From positions 2,790 to 66,789 of the forward strand of contig CAZKXY010000001.1 of the NCBI GenBank assembly GCA_964556925.1: a stretch of 64,000 nt of DNA, written 5' to 3'. The translations under genes were made by a program, and so were the position numbers. Each line of letters opens with the position of its first letter. Within the stretch, counting starts at the first letter, position 1. Origin of the DNA: an uncultured Planctomycetales bacterium (GTDB lineage: Bacteria; Omnitrophota; Gorgyraeia; Aquiviventales; Aquiviventaceae). Positions 1 through 59,616 of the stretch are shown in pieces. Under the pieces are notes generated by a model. It had not been told where the DNA came from and did no database searches. It saw only the letters and a list, made by a program, of their open reading frames with translations.

Positions 1-479
1 CCGAGCTGGCCACGGACGAGGCGACGACGGAATCGGTCCTCAAGCATGCGGTGGAGTGGCTCGACGCGCGCGGCTGCCCCATTGACATCGTCGTCTTTTT
101 GCAGCCGACGGATCTCTTTCGCAAGCGCTGGATGATCGAGGACGCCGTGCGGGCCTTGCTGGAGGACCCCGCGCTCGAGTCGGCCTTCGTCGCCACCCTG
201 GATCACAAGAATTACTGGGGCCAGGTCGACGGCCGCTACGTGCCGGTCTCTCATCGCGGCTACCAGCCGCGGCAGCAGAAGCCACCCGTCTATCGCGAGG
301 ACACCGGGTTGGCCTGCGCGACCCGCGCGGCGATCGTGAAACAGGGCCGGCGGATCGGCGACCGCGTGCACCTGCTGGTGAACCGCGACCAGACGTCGTT
401 CATCGACATCCACGGGGAGTTTGACCTCTGGCTGGCCGAGCGGGTGCTGGCCGAGGGCAAGCGGACCATCAATGACTAG
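1..479 (+). CDS. Acylneuraminate/CMP-sugar cytidylyltransferase family protein (NeuA/KdsB-like), C-terminal part; the 5' end lies outside the window (reading frame begins at nt 3)
   Basis: The open frame runs off the 5' edge. The translation (LQPTDLF ... YREDTGL ... VNRD..SFIDIHGEFDLW) resembles the C-terminal half of CMP-NeuAc/CMP-Kdo synthetases. The stop overlaps the next start (ATGACTAG). Confidence 0.6.
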   Translation, partial: ELATDEATTESVLKHAVEWLDARGCPIDIVVFLQPTDLFRKRWMIEDAVRALLEDPALESAFVATLDHKNYWGQVDGRYVPVSHRGYQPRQQKPPVYREDTGLACATRAAIVKQGRRIGDRVHLLVNRDQTSFIDIHGEFDLWLAERVLAEGKRTIND

Positions 480-3458: not shown

Positions 3459-4699
3459 GGCGGGTGACCGCCTGCCCCGCCTGTTCGTCGACGGAGCGCC
3501 GGGCGCTGATGCACGTGGTGAGCCGGGTGGTGCGGGCGGAGGACCAGCTCGTCTATTGCTACTGTGACCGTTGCGGGTTGGTGTATGCGCAAGACGTGAT
3601 CGACACGCGGGCAGAATGCGACGGGACGTACACCGACCCCTATCGCCGGCTGAGCGACGAGCAGATCCTGCGTGACAGCACCGTGTTTCGCCTCAGGAAA
3701 AACCGCTACCGAAAGGCCTGGTTGGACAAGCAGCTTGCCGCGCTCGGCAAGACGTACCCCGCAGGCAAGCAGGCGCTGGAGATCGGGGCGAAGGACGGGT
3801 CATTCCTCTGGCTGCTCAAGCAGGACGGCTGGCAGGTCGCGGGGATCGACCCCAATCGGCGATATGGGGCCTGGGCGCGTCAGCACTATGGCGTGGACAT
3901 CCAGGACGGCTACTTCCAGCCCGGGAGCGTGAGCGGGACCCCGTATGATCTGGTCGCGCTGTTTTGCGTGTTTGAGCACATCGACAACCCCGGCGCCTTC
4001 CTCGGGGCGGTTCGGAGCGCGTTGCGCGAGGGCGGGCTGCTGTATCTCGAAACGGACAACCTGGCGTACCTGCAACAGCGACAATTGATCCCGATGCATC
4101 CCATCCTGTATTCCCGCCAGACGCTGACGCAGGTGCTGGCGCGCCACGGCTTCAGGATTCTGGCGATGACGGAGAACGCCCCTGGCGGGGCCATGGTATT
4201 TGACCAGTTGGCGGTCTTGGCGGAGGTCGCCGAGGGGCCAGCTCCGCTCACGTGCCAGCCGGCCGAGGACTTCGCGACGGCCAAGCGGATGCTGGAGCGC
4301 GCCCTGAGCGACGATTTTCCGTCTCCCACGCCGACAGGCACGAATCGGCTGTTTCGCGCGGTGAGCCGCGTGCTGGGTGAACGGCTGGCGTCTCTCCTGA
4401 AGGCGGGGTACGTGAGCGTCCGGGGGATGGGCAACCGCCGGCGCCTCGCCACGCGGGAATCCGCCGACGGACAGCCCACGTCCCGCCGATTCCCCGAGCC
4501 GATCCGTGACGCGTTCCTTCAGGGATCCCTGACGGCATCTCACCTGGAGGAACTGGCCAAGCTCGACGACGAGTGTGTGCAGTTGAAGATCTTGGCTCGG
4601 ATCAGGGCGTACCGGCTGTCTGCGGAGGCGACCCGTCAGCTGGTTGAACGCGAACGCGCCCACGACTGCCACGGCATCGAACAGGCGATCGTCTCATGA
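3455..4699 (+). CDS. Class I SAM-dependent methyltransferase with an N-terminal Cys4 zinc ribbon (sugar C-/O-methyltransferase-like, TylCIII-type architecture)
   Basis: CPAC...CDRC zinc ribbon, then LEIGAKDGSFLWLL (SAM-binding motif I) and DLVALFCVFEHIDNP. ATGA overlap with the upstream gene. Confidence 0.7.
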   Translation: MRRVTACPACSSTERRALMHVVSRVVRAEDQLVYCYCDRCGLVYAQDVIDTRAECDGTYTDPYRRLSDEQILRDSTVFRLRKNRYRKAWLDKQLAALGKTYPAGKQALEIGAKDGSFLWLLKQDGWQVAGIDPNRRYGAWARQHYGVDIQDGYFQPGSVSGTPYDLVALFCVFEHIDNPGAFLGAVRSALREGGLLYLETDNLAYLQQRQLIPMHPILYSRQTLTQVLARHGFRILAMTENAPGGAMVFDQLAVLAEVAEGPAPLTCQPAEDFATAKRMLERALSDDFPSPTPTGTNRLFRAVSRVLGERLASLLKAGYVSVRGMGNRRRLATRESADGQPTSRRFPEPIRDAFLQGSLTASHLEELAKLDDECVQLKILARIRAYRLSAEATRQLVERERAHDCHGIEQAIVS

Positions 4700-6588
4700 C
4701 CGTCGTCGAAACCCTGGGACCGGTGAGCTGGTGGGTGCTGCGGCGCCGGCGCGCCACCTGCCCCTGCGGCCGCCTCGTCGTCCTGCGACGCTCCTGGACC
4801 AGCCGGTGGCTTTGCCTGGTCCAGCGGGAGCGGATCCACCACGTGTCCACCGACCAGCTCGGCAGAGCCCGCGTCATCACCTCCTCCCTGACGGCGCGGC
4901 TGATGGACGCCATGCTGGGGCGGGGCGGGGTCGACCCCCAGCTGGAGCAGCTCCTCTTGCGATTCTTCTTTCACGATGAGCACATCCGCTTCGTCTGTCG
5001 GAAGAACCTGTTCCAGTGGGTCCAGGACCAGGCGACGCTCTACCAGGCGGCGTGGGAGATGGCCCGCGCGCGTCGGTGCCCCAGCGCCGCCTTCGTCCCC
5101 ACAGACCCCTATGCCGCAAGGCTGCTGGGGTGTTGGAAAGCGGCTCACGATCCCCAGGCCGCTGCGGGCCTGGAGATCATTGAGCACAACCTGCTCGTCG
5201 GGCTTGGGGTCTGGCGGAACGCGGCCTGGAGTTGGCTCGCCGGAAGCGGATTGCTGGCGGGCGTGCTGGTGCGGGTGGCTCGCCAGGGAATGGTGCGGCG
5301 TCTCCCCGCCCGCCGAGCCTTTCGTGTGGCGTTGCACAACCATCACGGCATCTCGAGACGGCCGCAGGATGTGCGGTTCGCCGAGTGTCTGGTTGACGGG
5401 CAGCGCCTCCGGAAGCAGGACGTGCTGCTGTTGCTCTCAGGGGCCAGGCGCGATCTGAAGCGGCAGCGCCAGTCCCTTGGCGACGGCATCGCGTCGACCC
5501 GCCTCTTCGGGCCGCCGGTTCCGCTGCCGTATCTCGTGCGGCTGGTGCCCCGGTTGCTCCGGGCGGTGGGGGCCTTCTGGGGTGTCCGGGGGACCGCTCA
5601 TGCGGTGCTCCGCTGGCGGGCGGCGGGCGCGATCCGGTATGGGCTCTTGCTCGAGGCGGTGTTGTCCCACTATGCGATCGGCGTGCTCCTGAGCACGGAG
5701 GAGTCGTTCTCCCATCACATTGTGGAGACCGTCGTGTTGAACCACTGGGGGGCTCGGACCGCGTGGATCCCCGAAAGCGTCGCCAGCCGCGACTACAATA
5801 TGACCTACCTGCACTACGATCTGCTCCCCATCCAAGGGCACTTCCCGGCGACCCTCCACGACGGGACGTGGAGCCGACGGATGGCCGTCAAGCCGGTGGG
5901 GATGCTCTGGAATGACGGGACGTCCCATGCCGAGATGGCCTCGGCGAGCGAGCCGGTGCGCGCGATCATCGCCGACGCGAAGCGGCTCAGCCGGAAGATC
6001 CTGGCGGCATTTGCCGGCTCCTACAGCGCCCCGGATGAATTCCTCGTGGAGCGGTATCGGCGGTTCCTCGCGGTGTTGGCGGCGCTGGCGGCGCAGGATC
6101 CGCGGCTGCTCATCCTGCTCAAGCCGAAGGCCAACGCCGATACGCCGCGCCACTTGACGTTTCTGTTCCAGCCGCCGTTTTGGGACGTCCTGGAGCCGGG
6201 GATCCGCCAGGGGACCATCCGCCTCCTCGACCCCCGCGAGGGGCTCACGTGCGCCGCGCAAGACCTGATCGCGGCGGCCGACGCCGTCGTCTCCACCAGC
6301 CAGTACGCGGCGTTTAATTCGGTGTGGGCGGAGGCGCTGTTGCTCGGCAAACCCTCCTATTCCTTCACCCCGTCGGAATTCCGTCGGGCCCTCTCCGCGC
6401 CGGGGTTATTCGACGAATGGCTCTTTGACGATGAGGACGCCCTGCTGGCCAAGCTCCAGGCGGCCCTGCGCGAGCCGCCGGCGCGCCCCCAGGTCGAGGC
6501 GCGGATCCGGTGGCTCTTCGACCCCTACAATGACGGCCGCGCCCTCGAGCGATTCAGGGACGCCGTCTTGTCCCTTGCCGGCGCGTGA
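4696..6588 (+). CDS. Hypothetical 630-aa protein; the C-terminal half resembles a GT-B type nucleotide-sugar-binding domain (KpsS/TagF/capsule-synthesis-like)
   Basis: A long ORF with genome-typical codon usage and ATGA coupling at both ends. The C-terminal segment ILAAFAGSY...LILLKPKAN...DLIAAADAVVSTSQYAAFNSVWAEALLLGKP has the shape of a GT-B C-terminal domain. No confident family assignment. Confidence 0.4.
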   Translation: MTVVETLGPVSWWVLRRRRATCPCGRLVVLRRSWTSRWLCLVQRERIHHVSTDQLGRARVITSSLTARLMDAMLGRGGVDPQLEQLLLRFFFHDEHIRFVCRKNLFQWVQDQATLYQAAWEMARARRCPSAAFVPTDPYAARLLGCWKAAHDPQAAAGLEIIEHNLLVGLGVWRNAAWSWLAGSGLLAGVLVRVARQGMVRRLPARRAFRVALHNHHGISRRPQDVRFAECLVDGQRLRKQDVLLLLSGARRDLKRQRQSLGDGIASTRLFGPPVPLPYLVRLVPRLLRAVGAFWGVRGTAHAVLRWRAAGAIRYGLLLEAVLSHYAIGVLLSTEESFSHHIVETVVLNHWGARTAWIPESVASRDYNMTYLHYDLLPIQGHFPATLHDGTWSRRMAVKPVGMLWNDGTSHAEMASASEPVRAIIADAKRLSRKILAAFAGSYSAPDEFLVERYRRFLAVLAALAAQDPRLLILLKPKANADTPRHLTFLFQPPFWDVLEPGIRQGTIRLLDPREGLTCAAQDLIAAADAVVSTSQYAAFNSVWAEALLLGKPSYSFTPSEFRRALSAPGLFDEWLFDDEDALLAKLQAALREPPARPQVEARIRWLFDPYNDGRALERFRDAVLSLAGA

Positions 6589-6599
6589 GGATCCCCGCG

Positions 6600-8426
6600 A
6601 TGCGACGACTGCTCACGTTCCTTGAGCCCTCCCGGGGCTGGGTGGCGGCGACCGTGCTGTGCTTGACGGTGGCGGCGGTCCTTGAGTCGGTGGGCTTGAG
6701 CCTCTTCGTGCCCCTGATCACCGCGCTCGCCGATGGCCCGGCATCCCCGGCCACCGGGGGCTCGGCGCTCTTCGCGTCCTACCTTCGCTTCCTCGAGGGG
6801 GTGTCCAGGCATCGCGGGGTGGAGATCGTCGTGATCGCGTTGGGGATCGCCCTGGTGCTCAAGAATCTGTTCGGATATCTGGGTCGCCTGCTGGGGGCGT
6901 ATGTCGAGCTGCGGACCGTGAGACTCCTGCGCAGCCGGTTGTTTCAGACCTACCTGGGGTCGAGCTATCAGTTCTTCCTGGATCGGAAGCACGGGCGGCT
7001 GGTCCACGACCTCTTCACGGAGACCACGGTCGTCGGCGAGATGGTCGCGCTCTGCACGGTGTCGCTCTCGCACCTGATCACGATGGCGGCGCTCTACCTG
7101 CTGTTAGTGCTCATCTGCTGGCAAGCGACCCTCGTCGCCTCCGCCATCTTCGCGCTCTTGACCGTTGGCCTGCAGGGCCTGTCAGGGCTGTCCCAGCATG
7201 TGGGGGCGTTGCGCCAGCGGGTGGCCAGCGAATTCGTCGCGCTCGGCACAGAGCTCATCCTCGGCATTCGCCAGGTCAAGGTGTTTGCGGCGGAGCGGCT
7301 GTTTGCCGAGCGGTTCAGGGCGCTCGCGCACCGGTTGAGCCGGGTGAATCTCCGCGTTCGGGCCGTGTCGCTGTCAGCGGAACCGCTCAGCGAGCTGGTG
7401 GTGCTGCTCGTCATGGTCAGCCTGGTCATCCTGGCGAGCCGGGGGATCGTCGGCGCGGCCACCACCCGGCTGTCGATCCTGATCACCTTTGCGGTGGTGC
7501 TCGTCCGGCTGCTGCCGGCGCTTGGCTCGCTCAACAAGGACCTCATCCGGCTGAGCGCCAACCTGAAGTCCGTCGAGGTCATCGCGGACCTGCTGGCGCG
7601 CCCGCCCCAACAGCCGGAGCCCCGGCGGGGCCGGGTCTTCGGCGAATTGCGTGACGCGATCCGGTTCGACGGGGTCGAGTTCTCGTATCCCGGCAGGCCC
7701 GAGGCTCCCGTCTTGCGGGGGGTCACGCTGCCGTTTCCCAAGGGCCGGACGACGGCGATCGTGGGCCCGTCGGGATCCGGCAAATCGACCCTGATCGACC
7801 TCGTCATCCGGCTCTACGAGCCGCGCCAGGGGCGCCTGCTGGTCGATGGGGTGGATCTTCAGGAGTACGAGCTCGCCTCGTGGCGGCGGGCGATCGGCTT
7901 CGTGAGCCAGGAGACCTTCATCTTCAACGCGTCGATTCGGGAGAACATCGCCTTTGCCTGTCCCGAGGCCAGCGAGGCCGACATCCGCTGGGCGGCCCAA
8001 CAGGCCGATGCCCACGAGTTCATCCAGCGGCTCCCCCACGGCTACGACACCGTGGTGGGGGAGCGGGGCCTGAAGCTGTCCGGCGGGGAGCGGCAGCGGA
8101 TCGCGATCGCGCGGGCGGTGCTCCGCCGCCCGCAGATCCTCATCTTCGATGAGGCGACGAGCGCGCTGGACAACGCGTCTGAACAGCGCGTCCAAGAGGC
8201 CATCGCGCGCATCAGCCAGGACCGGACCGTGATCGTGGTCGCGCACCGGCTCTCCACGATCAGCCGGGCCGACCAGATCGTTGTGCTCGATCTGGGCCGG
8301 ATCGCGGAGCAGGGGACGCATGAGGGGCTCCTGGCGCGGCGCGGGGTGTACTGGCGGCTGTATCACGCGGACGGGGTGCCGAGCCCCGACCCTCGCCCGG
8401 CCGAATGGCTGGCGGCGGTCGAATGA
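6600..8426 (+). CDS. ABC exporter with fused permease and ATPase (MsbA/lipid-A or glycolipid flippase-like)
   Basis: Six-TM N-terminal domain, then Walker A GPSGSGKST, the signature LSGGERQRIAIARA and Walker B ILIFDEATSALD. An alternative GTG start at 6585 overlaps the upstream stop. Confidence 0.85.
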   Translation: MRRLLTFLEPSRGWVAATVLCLTVAAVLESVGLSLFVPLITALADGPASPATGGSALFASYLRFLEGVSRHRGVEIVVIALGIALVLKNLFGYLGRLLGAYVELRTVRLLRSRLFQTYLGSSYQFFLDRKHGRLVHDLFTETTVVGEMVALCTVSLSHLITMAALYLLLVLICWQATLVASAIFALLTVGLQGLSGLSQHVGALRQRVASEFVALGTELILGIRQVKVFAAERLFAERFRALAHRLSRVNLRVRAVSLSAEPLSELVVLLVMVSLVILASRGIVGAATTRLSILITFAVVLVRLLPALGSLNKDLIRLSANLKSVEVIADLLARPPQQPEPRRGRVFGELRDAIRFDGVEFSYPGRPEAPVLRGVTLPFPKGRTTAIVGPSGSGKSTLIDLVIRLYEPRQGRLLVDGVDLQEYELASWRRAIGFVSQETFIFNASIRENIAFACPEASEADIRWAAQQADAHEFIQRLPHGYDTVVGERGLKLSGGERQRIAIARAVLRRPQILIFDEATSALDNASEQRVQEAIARISQDRTVIVVAHRLSTISRADQIVVLDLGRIAEQGTHEGLLARRGVYWRLYHADGVPSPDPRPAEWLAAVE

Positions 8427-9151
8427 GCGCGACACGCGTCCTCGCGGTGATCCCGGCGAGAGGCGGCTCGAAGGGGGTGCCGCGGAAGAACCTCAAGCTG
8501 CTCCAGGGCCGGCCGTTGCTGGCCCACATGATCGACGCCGCGCAGCACGCGACCCGCGTCCACCGGCTGGTGGTCTCGACGGAGGATGAGGAGATCGCCG
8601 AGGCGGCGCGGCGCTGCGGGGCCGAGGTGTTTCCGCAGCCGCCGGCATTGGCCGGCGATGGCGTCCCCATGATCGCCGTGACGAAGCACGTGGCGGAATG
8701 CCTGACCCGCGCGGGGTGGAGCGCCGAGATCGTCGTGCAGCTGTCGGCGAGCTGCCCGTTCGTGCCGTCCGCGAAGATCGACGAGGCGGTCGGGTATCTC
8801 CTCGCTGGCGAGACCGATTGCGCGGTGAGCCTCAAGCGGATTGAGCACGAGCATCCCTACCGCGCGAAAGCCCTGGGCGATGGCCACGTCTTTGAGAGCT
8901 TCCTCAAGGACCGGAACGTCGAACAGTATCTCCTGCGCCAGTCGCTTCCGCCGCTCTATTGCACGTCGGGCGCCATTTACGCCTGGACGCGCGCGCTGCT
9001 GTCCGCCTGGAACGGGAAGGATTTTTGCTTCGGCCAGCGCCCGAAGGCGGTGCTGGTCAACGATCGCGAAGCGATCAATATCGACCGGCCGATTGATTTC
9101 GCGTTCGCAGAGTTCCTCGCGGGCCTCGAGCCCCCGCGCCAGGCGGGGTAG
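8423..9151 (+). CDS. Acylneuraminate cytidylyltransferase (CMP-nonulosonic/ketoaldonic acid synthetase, NeuA/KdsB family)
   Basis: VIPARGGSKGVPRKNL is the hallmark N-terminal motif. Its ATG overlaps the ABC exporter stop (ATGA). Confidence 0.8.
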   Translation: MSATRVLAVIPARGGSKGVPRKNLKLLQGRPLLAHMIDAAQHATRVHRLVVSTEDEEIAEAARRCGAEVFPQPPALAGDGVPMIAVTKHVAECLTRAGWSAEIVVQLSASCPFVPSAKIDEAVGYLLAGETDCAVSLKRIEHEHPYRAKALGDGHVFESFLKDRNVEQYLLRQSLPPLYCTSGAIYAWTRALLSAWNGKDFCFGQRPKAVLVNDREAINIDRPIDFAFAEFLAGLEPPRQAG

Positions 9152-9154
9152 GCG

Positions 9155-10438
9155 ATGGACGTCCGGTTGGTGTGGAAGTCCTATTACGGGAATGAGCCGT
9201 TGACGCTGCAGCTGCCTGACGAGTGGGACGCGCAGGTGAGCGGGATGCCGCCGCGCCAGCCGTTGAGCGACGCGGCGATCGCGGACCGGATCGCGCAGGC
9301 GCCGGTTCGCTCGGGCAGGCTGCGCGATCTCGCGCGGGGCAAGCGGCGGGTCGTGATCGCGGTGGATGACCTCACCCGGCCGACCGAAGCCCACCGGCTG
9401 GCCCCTCCCGTGCTGTCCGAGCTGGCCGCCGCCGGCGTCGAGGCGCGGCACATCGTGTTCCTCGTCGCGATGGGCACGCACCGTCCCTATACCCTGCCGG
9501 ACCTCAGGAAGAAGCTCGGGGAGGAGATCGTCCAGACGTACGCCGTCTCGAATCACAGCTGCTACCAGCACCATCGTCTCATCGGCCGCACCTGCCGGGG
9601 CACGCCGGTGCAGATCAATCAGACGTACCTGGACGCCGACCTGAAGATCGGCATCGGCACCGTGATGCCGCACCCGATTGCGGGGTTCAGCGGGGGCGGC
9701 AAGCTCGTGACGATCGGCTTAGGCGGCATTGACACGGTGGAGGGGTTGCATCGGCCTGCGCTGACCAGCCTGCAGGGGACCATCGGGCGCGTCGAGGGCA
9801 ACCCGGTCCGGGAGGAGATCGAGGAGGGCCTCCGCTTGGCGGGGTTGGATTTTTTGGTCAACACCGTCCAAACGAGCACCGGGGCCACCGCGGAGGTCTT
9901 TGCCGGGGAGCCTGCGGCCGCCTACGCGGACGCGGTCCGGGCGGCGCAGCAGGCCTATGCCTGCGACGTCAGGTATCAGAACGACGTCGGGATCTTCAAC
10001 ACCTTCCCGCGGGACACCTGGATGCTCATGTCCTTCACCTCGCTGAACGTGTGGTCGACCCGGTCCCCGGAGAAGGCCGTGGTCCGGCCCGGCGGCTCGA
10101 TCGTCATCGTCAACGCCGCCTCCGAAGGCGTGGGCGAGCACGGCTTGATGACCAAAGGGATGCGGCAGTATCGCTTGAGGGATCAGCACGGCACGTTCAA
10201 GGACATGCTCCGAGACCGCGAGCTGGTGTTTCTCTCGCCGAACATCACGCGAGCCATGATCCGGGACTACTATCAGTGCGAGGTGCAACTCGTTCGGGAC
10301 GGCGACGCCCTGGTCCGGTCTCTCCGGCGGCGTCATCCTGGCCGGGCGCGCGTGTCGGTGTTCCCGCACGGGCCGCTGCAGATGGACGGCAGCTGCCTCA
10401 CCCCGGCCCCGGCGGTCTCGTCAGTCGCCCGTGGATGA
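9155..10438 (+). CDS. LarA-family protein (nickel-pincer-nucleotide dependent 2-hydroxyacid racemase/epimerase homolog, DUF2088)
   Basis: VIAVDDLTRPTE, AMGTHRP, NHSCYQHH...GTPVQINQTYLDADLKIGIGTVMPHPIAGFSGGGK, including the Lys that tethers the NPN cofactor in LarA. Full-length at 427 aa. Confidence 0.65.
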   Translation: MDVRLVWKSYYGNEPLTLQLPDEWDAQVSGMPPRQPLSDAAIADRIAQAPVRSGRLRDLARGKRRVVIAVDDLTRPTEAHRLAPPVLSELAAAGVEARHIVFLVAMGTHRPYTLPDLRKKLGEEIVQTYAVSNHSCYQHHRLIGRTCRGTPVQINQTYLDADLKIGIGTVMPHPIAGFSGGGKLVTIGLGGIDTVEGLHRPALTSLQGTIGRVEGNPVREEIEEGLRLAGLDFLVNTVQTSTGATAEVFAGEPAAAYADAVRAAQQAYACDVRYQNDVGIFNTFPRDTWMLMSFTSLNVWSTRSPEKAVVRPGGSIVIVNAASEGVGEHGLMTKGMRQYRLRDQHGTFKDMLRDRELVFLSPNITRAMIRDYYQCEVQLVRDGDALVRSLRRRHPGRARVSVFPHGPLQMDGSCLTPAPAVSSVARG

Positions 10439-11352
10439 GCCGAGCGCCCCGCGCCCTCATCACCGGCGGCACCGGGCTGCTCGGGCATGCGCTGCTGGAG
10501 GCGGCGCCGTCGGGGTGGGAGGTGGCGGCGACCTACCACTGCCTCCCGCCGGCCGAAGCCTGGCGGGGCCGGTTCCACCGGCTCGATCTGCGCGATGAGG
10601 CCGCGGTCGCCGACGTCCTCGAGGCGGTCCGGCCCGATGTCGTCATCCACTCGGCCTCGGTGGGCTCTGTGGAGCAGGCCGAGCGGGATCCGGACGCCGT
10701 CAGGGCGGTCAATGTGGGCGGCACCCAGGCGATCGGCCGGGCGTGCGGCAGGATCGGCGCGCGGTGCGTGTTCATCTCCTCCAATGCGGTCTTTGACGGG
10801 GCGCACCCCCCCTATAGAGAGGAAGACCCCGTGCGCGCGGTCAACCGGTACGGGGCGATCAAGATTGAGGCGGAGCGCTGGGTGCGGGAGGCGTGCCCGG
10901 TCCCCTGGGTCGTGATCCGGCCCATCCTGATGTACGGCTGGCCGCATCCGGGAGGGCGGGGCAACGTGGTGACGCGGTGGCTGGAGCGCCTTGAGCGGGG
11001 CGAGGCGGTGGAGGTGGACGAGCGGCTCATCACCATGCCGCTCTGGGTGGGCGACTGCTCGGGCGCGATCTGGGCGGCGGTCACGCGCCAACGCACCGGT
11101 CTCTATCATGTGGCCGGCGCGGATCGGCTGAGCTTGCTGACGTTCGCGCGGCGCGTGGCCAGGGTCTTCCAGGGGAACGAGGCGCTCATCCGGCCCGCCT
11201 CGGCATCATGGCTCAGCCGGTTCGCGCCGCGCCCCACGGACACCTCCTTCGTCACGAGGAAGATGGAGCAGGAGCTTGGCATCCGGCCCCTCGGCGTCTT
11301 GGAGGGTCTGGCGATGATGCACCGGGCGCAGGTCGCGCACCGGGGCGGGTGA
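10435..11352 (+). CDS. SDR-family NAD(P)-dependent sugar reductase (dTDP-4-dehydrorhamnose reductase RmlD-like)
   Basis: LITGGTGLLG Rossmann motif, RYGAIK (YxxxK) and the RmlD substrate-binding-domain arrangement. ATGA overlap with the upstream gene. Confidence 0.7.
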   Translation: MSRAPRALITGGTGLLGHALLEAAPSGWEVAATYHCLPPAEAWRGRFHRLDLRDEAAVADVLEAVRPDVVIHSASVGSVEQAERDPDAVRAVNVGGTQAIGRACGRIGARCVFISSNAVFDGAHPPYREEDPVRAVNRYGAIKIEAERWVREACPVPWVVIRPILMYGWPHPGGRGNVVTRWLERLERGEAVEVDERLITMPLWVGDCSGAIWAAVTRQRTGLYHVAGADRLSLLTFARRVARVFQGNEALIRPASASWLSRFAPRPTDTSFVTRKMEQELGIRPLGVLEGLAMMHRAQVAHRGG

Positions 11353-11357
11353 GGGCG

Positions 11358-12392
11358 ATGCGGATCCTGCTCGTGGGGCCGTCGCTGCCGTTTCCCTGGA
11401 TGGCGTACACGGCGCGGGCCCTGCGCCGCCTCGGGCATTCGCCAACGCTGTTCCGGTACACGAACCGGTGGGTCAACCGGATCGCCGGCCTGGGGGCCGG
11501 TCGGATCGCCGGGGTCTCGGCCGCGGCGCGCGCGGCCGCGGCCGCCTGGCGCGCGGCGCGCGACGAGGCGCTGGTGGCCGTGGCCCGCCGGATGCGGCCG
11601 GAGCTGGCGATCGTGCTGCGCGGCGAGCTGATTGCGCCGGCGGCGCTGGCGCAGGTGAAGCGGTCCCTCGCCGGGCCGTTCGTCACCTGGTGGGTCGACG
11701 ATCCCGGCCGCTACCCGGGCTCGGCGGAGCGGCTGCGGCTGTACGACCACGTGTTCCTGTTCGATCGGGCGTGCGTGCGGCGGCTGGCGGCGGGGGGCGC
11801 GCGCGTGACGTTCCTGCCGTGCGCCTGCGACGAGACCGTGTTCCAGCCGAGGGCGTTGAGCGCCAGGGAGCGGCGCCGGTACGGCTGTGACATCGCGCTG
11901 GTGGGGTGGTACTACCCCAACCGCGCCGAGGTGGTGCAGGCCCTCAGCGGGTTCCGGGTCGGCATCTGGGGCCGGGGCTGGGCGCGCGCGGACGCGCGGC
12001 GGGCGCTGAACGGCATCGGGTCCCGGGCGCTGCGCAGCCGTCGCTACGTGAGCGACGGCTGCGCGGCGGCCATCTACAACGCGGCCGCCCTCGGGCTCAA
12101 CGTCCATCACGCGCAGGCCCGCGAGGCCGGCTTGAACACGCGCACCTTCGAGGTGCTGGCGGCCGGCGGGTGCGAGCTGGTCGATGCGGTGCCGGGCCTG
12201 GAGGAGCTGCTGCGACCCGGCGAGGAGCTGCTCATGTACCGCTCGCCCTCGGAAGCGCGCGAGCTGGCGGCCCACTACCTCCGGCGGCCGCGCGAGCGGG
12301 CCCGGATCGCGGCGCGGGGACGCGCCCGGGTGCTGGCCGAGCACACCTATGTGCACCGGATGCGGAGGCTGCTCCGCGCGGTGGCCCGATGA
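11358..12392 (+). CDS. CgeB-family / Glyco_trans_1_2 domain glycosyltransferase
   Basis: The C-terminal FEVLAAGGCELVD...LLMYRSPSEARELAAHYL block is typical of CgeB-like GT-B proteins. The internal ATG lies 5 nt after the upstream stop. Confidence 0.55.
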   Translation: MRILLVGPSLPFPWMAYTARALRRLGHSPTLFRYTNRWVNRIAGLGAGRIAGVSAAARAAAAAWRAARDEALVAVARRMRPELAIVLRGELIAPAALAQVKRSLAGPFVTWWVDDPGRYPGSAERLRLYDHVFLFDRACVRRLAAGGARVTFLPCACDETVFQPRALSARERRRYGCDIALVGWYYPNRAEVVQALSGFRVGIWGRGWARADARRALNGIGSRALRSRRYVSDGCAAAIYNAAALGLNVHHAQAREAGLNTRTFEVLAAGGCELVDAVPGLEELLRPGEELLMYRSPSEARELAAHYLRRPRERARIAARGRARVLAEHTYVHRMRRLLRAVAR

Positions 12393-15930: not shown

Positions 15931-16685
15931 CGCGTTCCCTGGCGGAGCTCTGGCGCGTGTCGCGGCTGTCGTTGAGCATCCTGAAGCAGATGACCGTGGA
16001 ACGGGGACCCCGCGAGACGGCGGCGTTCGCCTGGCTCGGGCTCTGCCGAGCGCTCCAGGGCAAGCCGCTGCCGCAGACGCCGGACATCAACCGGCTGTTG
16101 TGGACGCACTATGATTGGTCCCGGGGAGGTCATGAGTGGTCCGACAGCCCGGCCTGGACCGCCAGCGTCGTTGACCATCTGCTCATCCCGCATGTGCCGA
16201 TGGGCAGCCGCGTCCTGGAGATCGGCCCTGGGGCGGGGCGCTGGAGCGAGCCTCTCGCGCGCCGGGCCAGCCGGCTCGTCCTGGTCGATGTCACGCCCAG
16301 GTGCATCGACCTCTGCCGCCGGCGGTTTCAGGCGCTGCCCCAGGTCGAGTGCGTGCTGACGGACGGCACCGACCTCAGCGCCGTGGCGCCGGGCTCCATC
16401 GATCGCGTCTGGTCGTGGGATGTGTTCATCCATTTGCAGCGGTCTGACCAGGAGTCCTACCTGCGGCAGTGTGGCGCCCTCCTGGCGCCGGCAGGGCGCG
16501 GGCTGATCCATCACACGGTCGCGCCCTCTGGGCGAGGGTGGCGCAGCGTCGTCCCCGCCGAGCAGATGGTCCAGATGTGCCGGACGAGCGGGCTGGAGGT
16601 TGTCCGGCAGTTCACCACGTGGGGCGATGGGCGGTGGGCCACGCCGACCCCGGCGGACCTGATCACCGTGTTCGCAAAGGCATGA
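15927..16685 (+). CDS. Class I SAM-dependent methyltransferase
   Basis: VLEIGPGAGRWS (motif I) and RVWSWDVFIHL. ATGA overlap with the upstream gene. Confidence 0.7.
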   Translation: MTRSLAELWRVSRLSLSILKQMTVERGPRETAAFAWLGLCRALQGKPLPQTPDINRLLWTHYDWSRGGHEWSDSPAWTASVVDHLLIPHVPMGSRVLEIGPGAGRWSEPLARRASRLVLVDVTPRCIDLCRRRFQALPQVECVLTDGTDLSAVAPGSIDRVWSWDVFIHLQRSDQESYLRQCGALLAPAGRGLIHHTVAPSGRGWRSVVPAEQMVQMCRTSGLEVVRQFTTWGDGRWATPTPADLITVFAKA

Positions 16686-17989
16686 CGCCGTGCCGACCCT
16701 CCTCCGTCCTGCAATGGCTCACCCTGGGCTACCTCCTGCTGCTGCCCCTCGGCGGCGCCCCGCTTCCGGCGAACATGCAGTGGGCCGATCTGGCGTTTGT
16801 CGCGCTGGGTGCAGCGGTCGTCGCCACGCAGCGTCGGGGCCTCCTGATCAGGCATCCCATGGATTGGCTCGTCGCGGCGTACCTCGCAGGGTCGGTGGTG
16901 TCGTGTTGGCGCAGCACGGATCTCGTGCAGAGCGGCCTGGGGCTCGCCCAGCAGGGCTCGCTCGTGCTCGTCTATCTCGTGTTCAGCGCGATCGCCAGGC
17001 CGCGCGGGATGGTGCCGAAGATCGCCTGCTGGGGCGCGTGGACGGCGATGCTCTTCGCCGGGGCCAGCCTGCTGGCGCTGGGGCTCTACGTGATGACCGG
17101 CGTCGAGCGTGGGCCGTGGCTCTCCGTGGGGCCGATTCCTGGCGCCGGCACCATCGCCCGCATCAAAGGCGCCCTGCTGTCGCCGGGCTTCTTCTGCAAC
17201 TACCTGACCATGGCGCTGCCCTGGCTGATCCTCCTGCCGCAGGGTCCCGCGCATGCGCACGCGACGCGCTGGTGGCGCGCGGCGCGCGCCGTGGTCATGG
17301 GCGCGGCGATGGGCACGGCCACCGCCAGCGTGGCGGGCTTCCTGGCGGGTGGCCTGGCGAGCGTGTGGGCGCTCTGGCGGTCCACCCGGTGGCTGCGCCT
17401 CGCCCGCGCCGGCCTGGCCGCGGCAGCGGCCGTCACGCTGGTGGTGATGAACCTCATGGTGACCGTCGCCGTGCGCGACCTCTCATGGGCCAGCGATCGC
17501 AACTCCCGCGTCGGCGCTGCCGGGCACGAGTACGCGTTCCTGCCGGAGGGCGGCGCCGAGCGGCTCACCGTGAGCGTCTCGTACGTCCCCATCAGTTACG
17601 GCCTGCTCAAGCGCGTCGCGGTCGAGGCGTTCAGGCGCGAGCCGCTGACCGGCATCGGCTTGGGCGCCTTCCACGCCGAGACCGAGCGGGCGTACCAGCA
17701 GGGGACGCTCCATCAGCCCTACCGGGCGGCTGATCCGCACGCCGAATGGCTGGGCCGGCTGGCCGAAACCGGCCTCGTGGGGTTCGTGACGCTGGCGGCG
17801 TTCTGGGTCGGGGTCTTCCGCTTGGCCGCGCGCCTGAGCCGGGGCTCGCGCGCCGACGCGTGGGTGCTGCGGGCGCTGATCGCTGGCTGGATCGGCGTGC
17901 TCGTCAACAGCCTCAACGCCGATGTCATGAACTTTCGCTTCCTCTGGGTGGGGCTGGGCGTGCTGCGGGCGCTGGCGCTGCGATGCTGA
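16682..17989 (+). CDS. O-antigen ligase / Wzy_C-family polytopic membrane protein
   Basis: About 10 predicted TM helices and a periplasmic loop motif, PLTGIGLGAFHAE...H...AHAEWLGRLAETGLVG, typical of WaaL/Wzy_C. ATGA overlap. Confidence 0.65.
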   Translation: MTPCRPSSVLQWLTLGYLLLLPLGGAPLPANMQWADLAFVALGAAVVATQRRGLLIRHPMDWLVAAYLAGSVVSCWRSTDLVQSGLGLAQQGSLVLVYLVFSAIARPRGMVPKIACWGAWTAMLFAGASLLALGLYVMTGVERGPWLSVGPIPGAGTIARIKGALLSPGFFCNYLTMALPWLILLPQGPAHAHATRWWRAARAVVMGAAMGTATASVAGFLAGGLASVWALWRSTRWLRLARAGLAAAAAVTLVVMNLMVTVAVRDLSWASDRNSRVGAAGHEYAFLPEGGAERLTVSVSYVPISYGLLKRVAVEAFRREPLTGIGLGAFHAETERAYQQGTLHQPYRAADPHAEWLGRLAETGLVGFVTLAAFWVGVFRLAARLSRGSRADAWVLRALIAGWIGVLVNSLNADVMNFRFLWVGLGVLRALALRC

Positions 17990-21108: not shown

Positions 21109-22952
21109 GTGTCATGGCTCGGCACGTGGAGGCGTGGCTGAGCGCTCCGGTGTGGCAACAGCTCGGGATCGGCTGGCTGGCGGGGCTCACCGCCTTGCTC
21201 GTGACCCTGATGCTGACGCCGCTCGTCCGCGAGATGGCGGTGCGGTTCGGGTGGGTGGCCAGGCCGGTCGGGGACCGGTGGGGCCGGCGCGCCGTCGCGC
21301 GGCTCGGCGGGGTGGCCATGTTCGCCGGCTTTGTGACGGCGGTCCTCATCTGGGCGCCGCTTGAGCCGCGCGTGATCGGGCTCTTGGGGGGCACGGTCCT
21401 GGTGTTCCTCTTGGGTCTGCTCGATGACATCCGGCGGATGCCGGCCCATACGAAGCTCGTGGGGCAGCTGCTCATCGGCTGCGTCGTCGTGCTCAGCGGC
21501 ATCCGCGTGGAGGTGAGCGCCTGGCCCTGGCTGTCGATCCCGCTGTCGGTCTTCTGGTTCGTGCTGGTCATGAACGCCTTCAACCTGCTGGACAACATGG
21601 ACGGCCTGGCGGCCGGCGTCGGGGCCATCGCCGCCGCGTTCTGCGTCGTCCATGCGGCGCTCGCCGGCGAGCGGATCGTGGCGATGCTGGCGGTGATCCT
21701 GTGCGGCACGTGCCTGGGGTTTCTCTTGCTCAACTTCCCTCCGGCGAAGATCTACATGGGCGATTCCGGCAGCCACTTCCTGGGCCTCAGCTTGGCCGCG
21801 TTGGCGCTGCTCGGCGGTTGGCGCCATTCCACGCACCTGTTGAGCGTGCTGGCGGTGCCGTCGCTGATCCTGGCGGTGCCGATCTTCGACACGTGCTTCG
21901 TCACGGTGCAGCGGCTCGCGCACCGGCTGCACCCGTTCGTCGGCGGGCGCGACCACGTGTCGCACCGGCTGGCCATCCTCGGCCTGAGCACCCGCCAGAC
22001 GGTGATCGCCCTCTACGGCCTGAGCGCGTCCCTCGGCGTGCTCAGCGTCGTGTCCCTCTCCCTGCGGCCGCTGGCGACGGTCGTGATGTGGCTGTTTGCC
22101 CTGACGGGGTTCGTCCTGGTCGGTTCGTACCTCTCGAACGTCAAGGTGTATCGGCTGAGCCGAACGCCGGCCGAGGCGGAGGAGGAACCGGATCGGCCCG
22201 TCACCCTGATCGACACCATGCTGATGCACAAACGCCGGCTCGTGGAGATCCTGGTGGACTTCGTCCTGGTGGGCGGCGTCTACGTCGTCGCCTACCTCCT
22301 GCGGTTCGAAGGGGCGCTGACGAGGGACCTCCAGCAGCTGATCGTGCAGTCGCTGCCGGTGATCCTGGTGGTGAAGTTGACATCCTTCGCCGCCTGCGGG
22401 GTGTACCGGGGCATCTGGCGCTACCTGAGCCTGCCGGATGTGGTGACGGTCTTCAAAGCGGTGACGCTCGGCTCGGTGGGTTCGGCGCTGGCGGTCTTGT
22501 ATCTCTGGCGGTTCGGCGGCTATTCCCGCGCGGTGTTCATCATCGACTGGATGCTGACCTTTTTCGCCGTCGGCGGCTCGCGGGTTCTGGAGCGGCTGCT
22601 CGATGAATGGATCAGCGCGGCCTCGGCGCAGGGGACCCCGCTGGTGATCATCGGGGCGGGGGATACCGGCGCGCGCGTGTTGCGGGCGCTGAAAGACGAG
22701 GGCCACGCGCGCCGCGTGATCGGGTTGCTCGATGATAACGTCCGCACGCACGGCGACCGCATCCACGGCGTGCCGGTCTTGGGCGGGCGGGGCAGGCTGC
22801 CGGAGCTGATTCAGGGCGCCGGGGTGCGGGAAATCCTCATCGCGATGAGCGACCCGCCGGGGGAGCTGCTCCACTACATCCAGCGCTGCTGCGAGCCGCA
22901 TGGCGCCTCCTGGAAAATCGTGACCGCGGGGATCATGCATGCCCCCGAATAG
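21105..22952 (+). CDS. Polyprenol-phosphate hexose-/HexNAc-1-phosphate transferase (WecA/MraY GT4 family) fused to a C-terminal CoA/NAD-binding CapD/PglF-like domain
   Basis: NAFNLLDNMDGLAAG and IYMGDSGSHFLG (MraY/WecA motifs), then LVIIGAGDTGARVLRAL...VIGLLDDN. Confidence 0.75.
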   Translation: MSVMARHVEAWLSAPVWQQLGIGWLAGLTALLVTLMLTPLVREMAVRFGWVARPVGDRWGRRAVARLGGVAMFAGFVTAVLIWAPLEPRVIGLLGGTVLVFLLGLLDDIRRMPAHTKLVGQLLIGCVVVLSGIRVEVSAWPWLSIPLSVFWFVLVMNAFNLLDNMDGLAAGVGAIAAAFCVVHAALAGERIVAMLAVILCGTCLGFLLLNFPPAKIYMGDSGSHFLGLSLAALALLGGWRHSTHLLSVLAVPSLILAVPIFDTCFVTVQRLAHRLHPFVGGRDHVSHRLAILGLSTRQTVIALYGLSASLGVLSVVSLSLRPLATVVMWLFALTGFVLVGSYLSNVKVYRLSRTPAEAEEEPDRPVTLIDTMLMHKRRLVEILVDFVLVGGVYVVAYLLRFEGALTRDLQQLIVQSLPVILVVKLTSFAACGVYRGIWRYLSLPDVVTVFKAVTLGSVGSALAVLYLWRFGGYSRAVFIIDWMLTFFAVGGSRVLERLLDEWISAASAQGTPLVIIGAGDTGARVLRALKDEGHARRVIGLLDDNVRTHGDRIHGVPVLGGRGRLPELIQGAGVREILIAMSDPPGELLHYIQRCCEPHGASWKIVTAGIMHAPE

Positions 22953-24171
22953 CCTCGGCGTGTGGGCCCGCCGCCTCCAGCTCGCCGGCCTCTACGTGCT
23001 GCTGGGCGCGTTGCCGTTTTCAAAGGCCGCGGTCGAGATCTGTTTTGGCCTTCTGCTCATCGGGTGGGTGATCGAACGCCTGCAGCCCGCCACGCGGTTC
23101 TTGACGGTGTGGCGCTCGCGGCGCCTGCGCCCGATCCTGACCGGCCTGCTGGCGTACCTCGCGATCTGCGCGGCATCGATCGCCGTCAGCGACTTTCCCG
23201 GCAAGAGCCTGGACGGCTTCGTGTCCAAGTGGCTCGAGTACCTGCTGTTCCTGGTCATTGTCGCGGACCTGGGATCCCGGCCGGGGGTGGCGGCTCGGGG
23301 GCTCGCCATCCTCGCCGGGTCCGGGGGGGCGGTGTTCCTGCTGGGCCTCTGGCAGGAGCAGCAGATTCTGGCGTTCCAGCCGGCGCTGGCAGTCGCTCCC
23401 GCGCATCCGATCGGGGCGTACTGGCGGATGACCGGTCCGTATGAGAACCCCATCGACCTGGCGACCTACCTGATGACGACGACCCCGATCCTGGTGACGT
23501 GGGGCCTGTCCCAGCGCGGGTGGCGGCGCTGGAGCCTGGTGGGCCTGGGGATGCTCCTCCTCGCCTGCCTGGGTCGGACCGAAGCGCTGGGGGCCTGGCT
23601 GGGGCTGGCGGCGGGCCTGGCCGCCGCGGCCTGGATGGACCGGACGTTTCGGTGGCGCGCCCTCGCCATCATGGCGGCGCTGGGACTCGGTGCCGTCGCG
23701 GTGCTGGTCGCCACCGGGCACGCGACCAGGTTTTCGCCGGTGGACGCGGGCACCCGTGACCGCTGGATGATGTGGCAGGCGGCGCTGCGCATGATCGAGG
23801 ACCGCCCGCTGCTCGGCCACGGCGTCAACACCTTCATGGCCAACTACCTGACGTATTGGGTCGGGGGCGAGCGGGTTCCCCGGTACGCCCACAATTGCTA
23901 CCTGCAGGTGGCGGCGGAAACCGGCCTGATCGGCCTGGCCGCGTTCGCCTGGCTCCTGGGCGCGCTCGTGCTCCGCTGGGCCGCCGGGATCAAGGACGCC
24001 TCAGCACCGCAGCGGGCGATGCTCACCGGAGTGACCGCTGGCCTGGTGGCGTTTCTCGTGCAGGCCGGGCTCGACACGAACTTCTACGCGTTGCGCCAGG
24101 CGGCGCTGTTCTGGGTGCTGTCCGGATTCGCCGTTGGGTTGAGCGAGCCGCCCGGCGTCCCGCCGGGTTGA
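22939..24171 (+). CDS. O-antigen ligase / Wzy_C-family membrane protein (second copy)
   Basis: Polytopic membrane protein with a RPLLGHGVNTF...AHNCYLQVAAETGLIG loop motif. Confidence 0.6.
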   Translation: MPPNSLGVWARRLQLAGLYVLLGALPFSKAAVEICFGLLLIGWVIERLQPATRFLTVWRSRRLRPILTGLLAYLAICAASIAVSDFPGKSLDGFVSKWLEYLLFLVIVADLGSRPGVAARGLAILAGSGGAVFLLGLWQEQQILAFQPALAVAPAHPIGAYWRMTGPYENPIDLATYLMTTTPILVTWGLSQRGWRRWSLVGLGMLLLACLGRTEALGAWLGLAAGLAAAAWMDRTFRWRALAIMAALGLGAVAVLVATGHATRFSPVDAGTRDRWMMWQAALRMIEDRPLLGHGVNTFMANYLTYWVGGERVPRYAHNCYLQVAAETGLIGLAAFAWLLGALVLRWAAGIKDASAPQRAMLTGVTAGLVAFLVQAGLDTNFYALRQAALFWVLSGFAVGLSEPPGVPPG

Positions 24172-24199
24172 CCGGCACCTGCCCCGCTGTGAGTCCCCC

Positions 24200-27425: not shown

Positions 27426-27518
27426 TCGTTGCTCGATCGTCCCTGCTTCTGGCTGCGGGGCCGGCTCGCCTGCGGTGCGCGGCATCGCTCCGGCCGCCCA
27501 GCGTGCGGCCGGTCGCTC

Positions 27519-27578
27519 AAAAGGTGTCAGACACCTTTCCCGATGCGAGACGAGCGGTCGAAAGGTGTCTGACACCTG
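27519..27578. repeat. Family-A element, copy A2 (long spacer containing GCGAGACGA)
   Basis: AAAGGTGTCAGACACCTTTCC-CGATGCGAGACGAGCGGTCG-AAAGGTGTCTGACACCTG. Lies in a 210-nt gap. Confidence 0.85.
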
Positions 27579-27636
27579 TTGCGATGCGCAGCGGCAGGAC
27601 CCGTCGGGCCAACACAGACCTGCAACAGGTGGCGGG

Positions 27637-45652: not shown

Positions 45653-45705
45653 GATGCTCGCTGCGACCTGTCTCCTGTCTCCGGTCTCCTGTCTTAGCCG
45701 TTCCG

Positions 45706-59463: not shown

Positions 59464-59616
59464 TCCCCCCACCTGCCGTAGGCGGTGCCTGATGGTGAAG
59501 AGCGATGGATCACAACGACGAAGAGACGGTGGTGGCACCGCCGTGGCCGGCTTGGCGGATCGATGGGCCGGGGCCGGCCGGGGCCCGCGTTCGGCGGGCC
59601 CGCGGCAGCTGGTGGG

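Follow-up and report, generated by a model that had tools for sequence, protein, structure and literature searches.

What does a homologue of the nickel-pincer lactate racemase LarA do inside a cluster of glycan-synthesis genes? The question is raised by a 64,000-nucleotide stretch of DNA (hereafter the window) from an uncultured Planctomycetales bacterium that GTDB places in Omnitrophota (assembly GCA_964556925.1, contig CAZKXY010000001.1, positions 2,790 to 66,789), in which the gene of such a homologue, here called LarAH, lies between genes for a NeuA-like cytidylyltransferase and an RmlD-like reductase. A sequence-only reading of the window had suggested an uncharacterised C2-epimerisation of a sugar acid or nonulosonic acid. 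Our data show that LarAH is a real, intact gene of the LarA superfamily, belonging to an uncharacterised clade whose members adjoin or are fused to cytidylyltransferases of the type that makes cytidine monophosphate (CMP)-ulosonates. This conserved adjacency and fusion suggest a hitherto undescribed role, the making of glycan precursors, for nickel-pincer enzymes. On balance, we favor a function for LarAH as an epimerase that depends on the nickel-pincer nucleotide (NPN) and acts in the synthesis of a CMP-activated 3-deoxy-2-ulosonic acid, similar to Kdo (3-deoxy-D-manno-octulosonate) or to sialic acid, for a surface glycan.

An intact LarA homologue with a divergent substrate site

The LarAH open reading frame (ORF) starts with ATG at 9155 and ends with TGA at 10436-10438, and its third-position GC content (0.90, in a window of about 70% G+C) is typical of real genes in the window. 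Both LarA/DUF2088 blocks named in the sequence-only reading were located, GTHRP at residues 107-111 and the Lys-containing AGFSGGGK at residues 176-183. The profile search that it had proposed returned a strong match to Pfam Lar_N (PF09861; residues 11-203, E = 4.3e-49, 166.9 bits against a cut-off of 23.3), and the Pfam Lar_C model (PF21113) found no match in LarAH. The best sequence match in the PDB is the broad-spectrum LarA of Isosphaera pallida (9eia, E = 2e-48), followed by Mar2, a malate racemase (6d6z), and LarA of L. plantarum (5huq/6c1w, E = 8e-28). An AlphaFold2 model built on the clade alignment reached a pLDDT of 93.2 and a pTM of 0.91. In a Foldseek search, this model matched 9eid, 5huq and 6c1w over about 430 columns (TM 0.83-0.85); LarA-family structures alone matched it (E 1e-35 to 1e-17), and the next fold followed at E > 1e-3. 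Because these matches cover full-length LarA, both domains of LarAH are LarA-like despite the missing Lar_C match, and a non-LarA fold, which would have refuted the earlier reading, finds no support.

Residue equivalences were derived from a pairwise alignment to L. plantarum LarA (6c1w), an alignment of 26 clade sequences and a motif table over 70 loci. The set required for NPN binding and catalysis is intact: K183, H199, H109 and H173 align with K184, H200, H108 and H174 of the L. plantarum enzyme (Table 1), so that the alignment check recommended in the sequence-only reading revealed no loss of the tether Lys or of a catalytic His. D71, D72, H109, H173, K183 and H199 are invariant in the 26 clade members and across the 70 loci, and D72 also aligns with L. 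plantarum LarA. R75, which binds the substrate carboxylate or NPN in LarA, is kept in the window protein and is Lys in nearly all other cytidylyltransferase-linked clade members. In LarA, K184 tethers NPN through a thioamide (bioRxiv 10.1101/2024.11.28.625916), and the reaction is a proton-coupled hydride transfer from the carbinol carbon to NPN and back.

Judged by curated sequence models, LarAH lies outside every characterised LarA group, since all NCBIfam equivalog scores are below half of their cut-offs (Mar LarAH6, 236 against 500; LarAH5, 220 against 462; LarA, NF033504, 193 against 460; LarAH10, 165 against 540; the hexonate epimerase model NPN_18_hexonate, 45 against 500; LarAH14-16, 44 against 740). 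LarAH shares with the LarA proteins of L. plantarum (5HUQ/6C1W) and I. pallida (9EIA/9EID) the two-domain fold, the tether Lys, the Ni-ligand His, the catalytic His pair and Arg75, at 25-31% identity. It differs from them in its L/M/T substrate clamp (see below), in the absence of a Lar_C match, in its LarA model score and in its genomic setting, a glycan operon beside or fused to a cytidylyltransferase rather than a lar operon with larB, larC and larE. The malate racemases Mar1 and Mar2 (LarAH5/LarAH6; 6D6Z) provide the top-scoring curated models and an N-domain alignment at E = 2e-39, but that alignment stops at residue 329-339, the scores are less than half of the cut-offs, and no dicarboxylate metabolic context accompanies LarAH. 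The closest functional precedent for a carbohydrate substrate comes from the D-gluconate 2-epimerases GntE1 and GntE2 (LarAH19/20) and putative hexonate epimerases, which are NPN enzymes acting on sugar acids; however, they are distant relatives, as the NPN_18_hexonate score indicates, and serve catabolism rather than the biosynthesis of nucleotide sugars, with C2 of an open-chain aldonic acid as the site of reaction.

The substrate site also sets LarAH apart. LarA holds the substrate carboxylate and 2-hydroxyl by Arg75, two His residues and Tyr294/Gln295/Lys298 on the first central helix of the C domain (bioRxiv 10.1101/2024.11.28.625916), and the two residues after the second catalytic His contact the substituent of C-alpha. 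The corresponding helix of LarAH (residues 290-299 in the AlphaFold2 model) follows a conserved P-x-D, which anchors the clamp alignment, and carries L291, M292 and T295 at the three clamp positions, where the clade-wide pattern is L, L/M and T/S/N. R286, W289, H329, R342 and H345 are candidates for residues that take the place of this clamp. Close relatives share the signatures DD(L/I)TKPT, FPRD(T/N)W(L/F)L(L/M)S, GEHGL and RD(K/E)HGTF in the motif table; among more distant members, FPKDTELLQALN is found, still with the Gln. The pair of residues that follows the second catalytic His is P-I in the window, P-Y in NeuB-linked archaeal members and N-L/M/I in other bacterial members, with or without a 3-deoxy-D-arabino-heptulosonic acid 7-phosphate (DAH7P) synthase gene in the recovered flank. 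Because the canonical clamp for carboxylate and 2-hydroxyl is not conserved, LarAH probably departs from the usual type of 2-hydroxy-acid racemase.

Adjacency and fusion to CMP-ulosonate cytidylyltransferases

We compared 79 loci from species-representative genomes and 80 from metagenomes (L numbers below), scanning six-frame ORFs with hidden Markov models built from the window's neighbours. The best match of LarAH in the species-representative genomes is 55% identical. In the window, the cytidylyltransferase directly upstream of LarAH scores 74.8 bits against a cut-off of 22.6 with PF02348 and matches NeuA 9ftb over residues 7-232 (E = 5e-20); it stays under the equivalog cut-offs, with PseF as the best curated model (113 against 205.7) and KdsB models at 34-59 against 155-281. 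Pfam and curated models thus agree with the sequence-only reading on the identity of both flanking genes, NeuA/PseF-like upstream and RmlD-like downstream.

A cytidylyltransferase gene directly precedes LarAH in the window, in two Acidobacteriota lineages (L005/L040 and L012), in Omnitrophota, in SAR324 and on the metagenome contig L097; the genes in L005, L009, L011, L012 and L040 are orthologues whose products are 49-57% identical to that of the window. The order ATP-binding cassette (ABC) exporter, cytidylyltransferase, LarAH recurs in SAR324 (L011) and in a bacterial metagenome-assembled genome (MAG; L088). In the Acidobacteria locus L012, the exporter belongs to the same cluster and two genes separate it from the cytidylyltransferase/LarAH pair.

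The two proteins are also joined in one polypeptide. The first homologue search returned three proteins of 658-674 residues in which CTP_transf_3 is fused to the N-terminus of a LarA homologue, and a second search with one of these fusions as query gave at least 26 clusters (90% identity) of CTP_transf_3::Lar_N fusions. Such fusions, of 654-689 residues, occur in many marine Thaumarchaeota and in one bacterial MAG. One cluster from marine Thaumarchaeota has 215 members, some of them Tara and fosmid sequences, which carry the annotation 'NeuA' or 'DUF2088', and one fusion sequence alone is present on 87 contigs. A neighbour-joining tree placed all adjacent and fused members in one clade, with a Chloroflexi group and two sequences lacking context as nearest neighbours, and none of about 100 more distant loci (at most 42% identity) has these neighbours. 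The tie to a NeuA-like cytidylyltransferase is therefore far stronger than the sequence-only reading could tell from one operon, since the two genes stay paired in different phyla and also turn up fused into one.

Fusions of this kind have a parallel in the multidomain NeuA-type CMP-nonulosonate synthetases, in which NeuA is joined to NeuB+SAF, KdsC-like phosphatase, esterase or methyltransferase domains, so that in both cases the cytidylyltransferase domain is joined to a further enzyme of its pathway. They differ in the partner, which here is a LarA-superfamily domain, an architecture that we found in no paper. The cytidylyltransferase domain of the fusions is 38-50% identical to these synthetases, and the closest relatives of the cytidylyltransferase are those joined to NeuB+SAF or to KdsC-like phosphatases.

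Most LarAH/cytidylyltransferase clusters also encode a synthase that condenses phosphoenolpyruvate (PEP), of either NeuB type or DAH7P-synthase type. In each thaumarchaeal locus whose flank is long enough, the gene immediately upstream of the fusion is that of NeuB. The bacterial MAG L088 has the order ABC exporter, cytidylyltransferase::LarAH fusion, a family 2 glycosyltransferase (GT2) fused to a cytidylyltransferase, formyltransferase, deacetylase, NeuB+SAF. In the Chloroflexi loci, NeuB overlaps the start of LarAH, and a cytidylyltransferase, a KpsC/S-like transferase and a Wzt exporter are encoded in the same cluster. No PEP-condensing enzyme is encoded in the window itself. Upstream of it, on the same strand (JGI metagenome contig Ga0212128_10000030 of 77 kb, L008, which includes the window), lie in order a GFO/IDH/MocA oxidoreductase, a DAH7P synthase, a shikimate dehydrogenase (SDH)-like protein, a SAF+GT2 protein, a 771-residue protein and a cytidylyltransferase. 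The synthase (L008 1845-2738) is of type I-beta, scoring 349 against 335 with NF006421 and 305 against 268 with TIGR01361, compared with 99 against 314 for the Kdo-8-phosphate synthase model. The SDH-like protein (377 residues) keeps the catalytic Lys/Asp of shikimate dehydrogenases and has an insertion of about 60 residues. The two genes (L008 1845-3905) lie 5.2-6.1 kb and 4.0-5.2 kb, respectively, before window position 1, and the same pair belongs to the clusters of L005, L040 and L012, while an SDH-like fragment borders the short contig L097.

Taken together, the cytidylyltransferase partner has relatives fused to nonulosonic-acid enzymes and is the only candidate activator of the NeuB product in the archaeal clusters. 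Therefore, LarAH very probably takes part in CMP-ulosonate synthesis, with either the free ulosonic acid or its CMP derivative as substrate.

Cofactor supply was considered as well. The sequence-only reading had reported no larB, larC or larE in the window, which is borne out as far as Pfam can see: the ORFs supported by codon bias contain no AIRC, DUF111 or PP-loop family. We also considered whether the cytidylyltransferase acts on the cofactor, by comparison with the CTP-dependent LarC, and rejected this idea because the whole protein resembles NeuA/PseF and because, in the archaeal clusters, no other cytidylyltransferase is at hand for the NeuB product.

Several further features of these loci were noted. 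A syntenic cluster of about 13 kb is shared across marine Thaumarchaeota (L003, L013-L020, L044, L089); it encodes a sugar-1-phosphate nucleotidyltransferase, one nucleotide-sugar 6-dehydrogenase or two (of which one carries a CBS pair at its N-terminus), a BFO_1060/TIGR04396-type glycosyltransferase, an AP_endonuc_2 protein, NeuB, the cytidylyltransferase::LarAH fusion, two GT4 proteins, a short-chain dehydrogenase/reductase (SDR), a PIG-L deacetylase and a methyltransferase. We take the BFO_1060 and TIGR04396 families, matched by the conserved archaeal glycosyltransferase, to belong to nonulosonic-acid clusters. In L089, the cluster adjoins AglB, which suggests a link to N-glycosylation.

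Upstream of the window, the DAH7P synthase and SDH-like pair sits in a glycan cluster that contains neither dehydroquinate synthase nor dehydratase, and the pair is found again in the Acidobacteriota loci L005, L012 and L040, which suggests that it serves a heptulosonic-acid sugar and not aromatic biosynthesis. On the Acidobacteriota chromosome OZ252113.1 (L040), the DAH7P synthase and cytidylyltransferase genes (6990-7861 and 9220-9998) are each split into two overlapping ORFs, either by long-read frameshift errors or as pseudogenes; both are intact in the near-identical ENA contig L005. A NodU/CmcH-type carbamoyltransferase in two LarAH clusters of unrelated phyla (L012 2302-4146 and L022 11513-13312) hints at an O-carbamoylated sugar. 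In the stand-alone LarA homologue P0011 (448 residues, JGI), roughly the first 25 residues align with the C-terminal end of the fusions' cytidylyltransferase domain, suggesting a truncated gene call or a decayed fusion.

The proposed site of epimerisation and rival explanations

Which carbon would such an enzyme invert? Of the C2-epimerisation put forward in the sequence-only reading, the connection to sugar-acid activation stands, but C2 of a 2-ulosonic or nonulosonic acid is excluded on chemical grounds because this keto or ketal carbon has no hydrogen for hydride transfer. The reaction must therefore involve a different carbinol or a 2-hydroxy derivative formed by reduction. Parsimony favors C4, because orthologues of about 50% identity pair with the unrelated DAH7P-synthase-type and NeuB-type synthases, whose products share only the C1-C4 head, in which C4 is the sole common stereocentre; we nevertheless regard this assignment as tentative. 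A conversion of D-arabino to D-lyxo configuration was not adopted, as it needs inversion of C5, which is neither alpha to the carboxylate nor the shared C4.

We propose the following order of events. A PEP-condensing synthase would make the ulosonic acid, of DAH7P-synthase type and together with the SDH-like enzyme in the window's contig, and of NeuB type in the archaea, the Chloroflexi and one other bacterial MAG. LarAH would then move a hydride from the carbinol carbon to NPN tethered at Lys183 and return it to the opposite face, with His109 and His173 as the putative acid/base pair, so that two epimers are equilibrated. The adjacent or fused cytidylyltransferase would activate one epimer irreversibly with CTP and thereby pull the equilibrium, and glycosyltransferases and the ABC exporter would use the resulting CMP-sugar. 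Coupling of an epimerase to an irreversible, epimer-selective step would explain the fusion with the cytidylyltransferase. The logic resembles that of the GalE-type NAD-dependent SDR sugar epimerases, in which, as the mechanisms of both families suggest, a carbinol is transiently oxidized and the hydride returned to the other face; fold and cofactor are unrelated (NAD against NPN). In its most specific form, our hypothesis is that NPN serves to epimerise, in the manner of GalE, a carbinol that is not in alpha position to a carboxylate, with C4 of free 3-deoxy-2-ulosonic acids as the likeliest case and the fused cytidylyltransferase as thermodynamic pull; we consider this form possible but less likely than not.

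A number of observations weigh against an NPN-dependent ulosonate epimerase. In every LarA homologue characterised so far, the reacting carbon is a C-alpha carrying a hydroxyl and a carboxyl group, and C4 of a 2-keto-3-deoxy acid is outside this known scope. No larB, larC or larE is present in the annotated flanks of six related loci, within 10 kb, and a motif scan found no PP-loop ORF in the flanks of any cytidylyltransferase-linked locus. Glycan context is lacking around the near relatives P0012 and P0014 (45-48% identity). The clamp is not remodelled in every member, since the Gln equivalent to Q295 is kept in the cytidylyltransferase-linked L088, in the Chloroflexi loci and in P0011, and the C-domain alignment that defines the clamp is based on sequence and predicted secondary structure rather than on superposed structures.

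The requirement for hydroxyl and carboxyl groups on the reacting carbon would be preserved if LarAH were a classical alpha-hydroxy-acid epimerase working at the distal end of the sugar, at C8 of a non-2-ulosaric acid or at C5 of a free hexuronic acid that NeuB condenses with PEP. The thaumarchaeal clusters invariably encode one or two UDP-sugar 6-dehydrogenases beside NeuB and the fusion; they also encode an AP_endonuc_2 protein with weak similarity to a phosphodiesterase, which could set free a uronic acid. D-gluconate and D-arabinarate are examples of the aldonic and aldaric acids that LarA homologues epimerise. However, no nucleotide-sugar 6-dehydrogenase is encoded in the window, in the upstream region of its contig or in L088, and uronic acids are common in archaeal glycans, so the 6-dehydrogenases may be unrelated to the LarAH step. 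The DAH7P synthase product ends in a phosphate instead of a carboxylate, and the alpha-oxygen of a heptulosaric acid in pyranose form is that of the ring. The canonical Y/Q/K carboxylate clamp is lost as well, and we consider this explanation rather unlikely. Less probable still is a C2 epimerase on a reduced derivative, in which the SDH-like enzyme would reduce the DAH7P synthase product at its 2-keto group to a 3-deoxy-aldonic acid, LarAH would set C2, and the cytidylyltransferase would activate the acid or its phosphate for a teichoic-acid-like polymer. The substrate would then be canonical for LarA, the SDH-like gene always follows the DAH7P synthase gene, and its product keeps the catalytic Lys/Asp and has a sugar keto-reductase, the 5-ketofructose reductase 7cok, among its PDB relatives. 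Yet the NeuB-linked clusters have no SDH-like gene, and the cytidylyltransferase is NeuA/PseF-like over its full length; to our knowledge, all characterised members of the NeuA/PseF family esterify the C2 hemiketal hydroxyl, which counts against activation of an aldonic acid. A Glyphos_transf-like transferase, conserved in the archaeal clusters and with weak relatives in the Acidobacteriota clusters L005 and L040, could fit a teichoic-acid-like polymer, but it scores better as a BFO_1060-family glycosyltransferase.

LarAH could also be an ordinary racemase of a small acid (lactate, glycerate or malate) that supplies one enantiomer as a glycan substituent. By score, malate and lactate racemases are its closest characterised relatives, the LarA superfamily includes racemases of glycerate and of lactate, and several methyl-, acyl- and carbamoyltransferase genes are present in the cluster. 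These points are outweighed by the low equivalog scores, each less than half of its cut-off, and by the replacement of the residues that clamp lactate; moreover, fusion to a CMP-sugar synthetase in dozens of lineages is not expected of a supplier of side-chain acids, and no hydroxy-acid-activating ligase or kinase is conserved alongside LarAH. We therefore give a small-acid racemase little probability and retain an epimerase of CMP-ulosonate synthesis as the favored function.

Neighbouring genes and implications

Table 1. Features of the window discussed in the text, with coordinates counted from its first nucleotide
Feature	Position	Strand	Basis
LarAH, LarA-superfamily homologue, 427 aa, predicted NPN-dependent epimerase	9155..10438	+	Lar_N match, PDB matches, AlphaFold2 model, Foldseek
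Codon of His109 in GTHRP, matching catalytic His108 of L. plantarum LarA	9479..9481	+	Alignment to 6c1w; invariant in 26-sequence clade alignment
Codon of His173, equivalent to second catalytic His174 of LarA	9671..9673	+	Alignments, motif table
Codon of Lys183, equivalent to LarA Lys184, NPN tether via thioamide (AGFSGGGK)	9701..9703	+	Alignments, motif table
Codon of His199, equivalent to Ni-coordinating His200 of LarA	9749..9751	+	Alignments, motif table
C-domain segment FPRDTWMLMSFT, start of first central helix; LarA Y294/Q295/K298 replaced by L291/M292/T295; clade signature FPRD(T/N)W(L/F)L(L/M)S	10007..10042	+	Alignment to L. plantarum LarA; helix in model; motif table, 70 loci
NeuA/PseF-like CMP-ulosonate cytidylyltransferase, 242 aa, conserved partner of LarAH	8423..9151	+	CTP_transf_3 E = 1e-20; PDB NeuA matches
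Fused ABC exporter (transmembrane domain and ATPase, 608 aa), directly upstream of the cytidylyltransferase	6600..8426	+	
RmlD-like SDR reductase	10435..11352	+	Pfam RmlD_sub_bind E = 4e-48; rmlD model 166 against cut-off 224
CgeB-like glycosyltransferase (Glyco_trans_1_2), next gene of the operon	11358..12392	+	
3' part of a second CTP_transf_3 cytidylyltransferase (233 aa in full; start upstream of the window)	1..479	+	

The sequence-only reading had described LarAH as translationally coupled to both flanking genes. This needs a minor correction: on the downstream side the LarAH stop overlaps the RmlD-like start as ATGA, whereas on the upstream side there is no overlap, as 3 nt separate the cytidylyltransferase stop (9149-9151) from the LarAH start. 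The RmlD-like reductase was also considered as a conserved partner of LarAH and was discarded: no homologue is encoded in the flanks of any other locus, and the gene accompanies LarAH in the window's contig only.

Elsewhere in the window and on its contig, three large ORFs of the glycan cluster show strong coding bias and no Pfam or NCBIfam match (window 4696-6588, 630 residues, and 26953-28491, 512 residues; L008 5308-7623, 771 residues). The cluster also includes two Wzy_C/O-antigen-ligase-like and two GT9 (heptosyltransferase-like) genes (16682-17989, 22924-24171; 24143-26313), an unusual redundancy if the host is a relative of Omnitrophota. Tandem paralogues of the galactose-1-phosphate uridylyltransferase/HIT family (45649-46758 and 46643-47752) lie just upstream of gap-pgk-tpi; the phosphoglycerate kinase of the window shares 72-77% identity with proteins of MAGs assigned to Candidatus Omnitrophota, which suggests that the host is an uncultured relative of this phylum with an unusually high GC content. 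A protein of 1139 residues (59485-62904) combines a spermidine-synthase-like domain with C-terminal tetratricopeptide repeats.

Published work on the LarA superfamily describes free 2-hydroxy-acid substrates only (PMC11770544, PMC11796402, bioRxiv 10.1101/2024.11.28.625916), and the texts of PMC11770544 and PMC11796402 mention neither cytidylyltransferases nor sialic acids nor polysaccharides. Our literature search found no paper linking LarA/DUF2088 with cytidylyltransferases or nonulosonic-acid synthesis. The single paper that contains both 'lactate racemase' and 'nonulosonic' (PMC8397731, ISME J 2021) reads a LarA-family protein specific to deep-sea sediment ammonia-oxidising archaea as a sign of lactate utilisation or D-lactate supply. 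Judged by the gene contexts described here, a function in glycan synthesis, not in lactate use, is suggested at least for those thaumarchaeal LarA homologues that are fused.

Proteins of this clade are currently labelled 'lactate racemase' or 'NeuA', and our findings call for correction of these annotations. An orphan group of the LarA superfamily thereby gains a candidate substrate class, the product of the neighbouring NeuB or DAH7P synthase. Characterised LarA-family proteins act on free 2-hydroxy acids in central or fermentative metabolism; the clade described here would extend nickel-pincer chemistry into glycan biosynthesis, and would imply that the lineages bearing it require nickel and LarBCE for envelope synthesis. 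If epimerisation does take place at C4, nucleotide-sugar biosynthesis would gain in LarAH its first NPN enzyme, which would also be the first outside the 2-hydroxy-acid rule, and new 4-epi heptulosonic or nonulosonic sugars would be expected on marine ammonia-oxidising archaea, Acidobacteriota, Omnitrophota, SAR324 and Chloroflexi. More generally, the clade would point to sialic-acid-like or Kdo-like sugars of unestablished stereochemistry on abundant uncultured organisms, including pelagic and deep-sea Thaumarchaeota.

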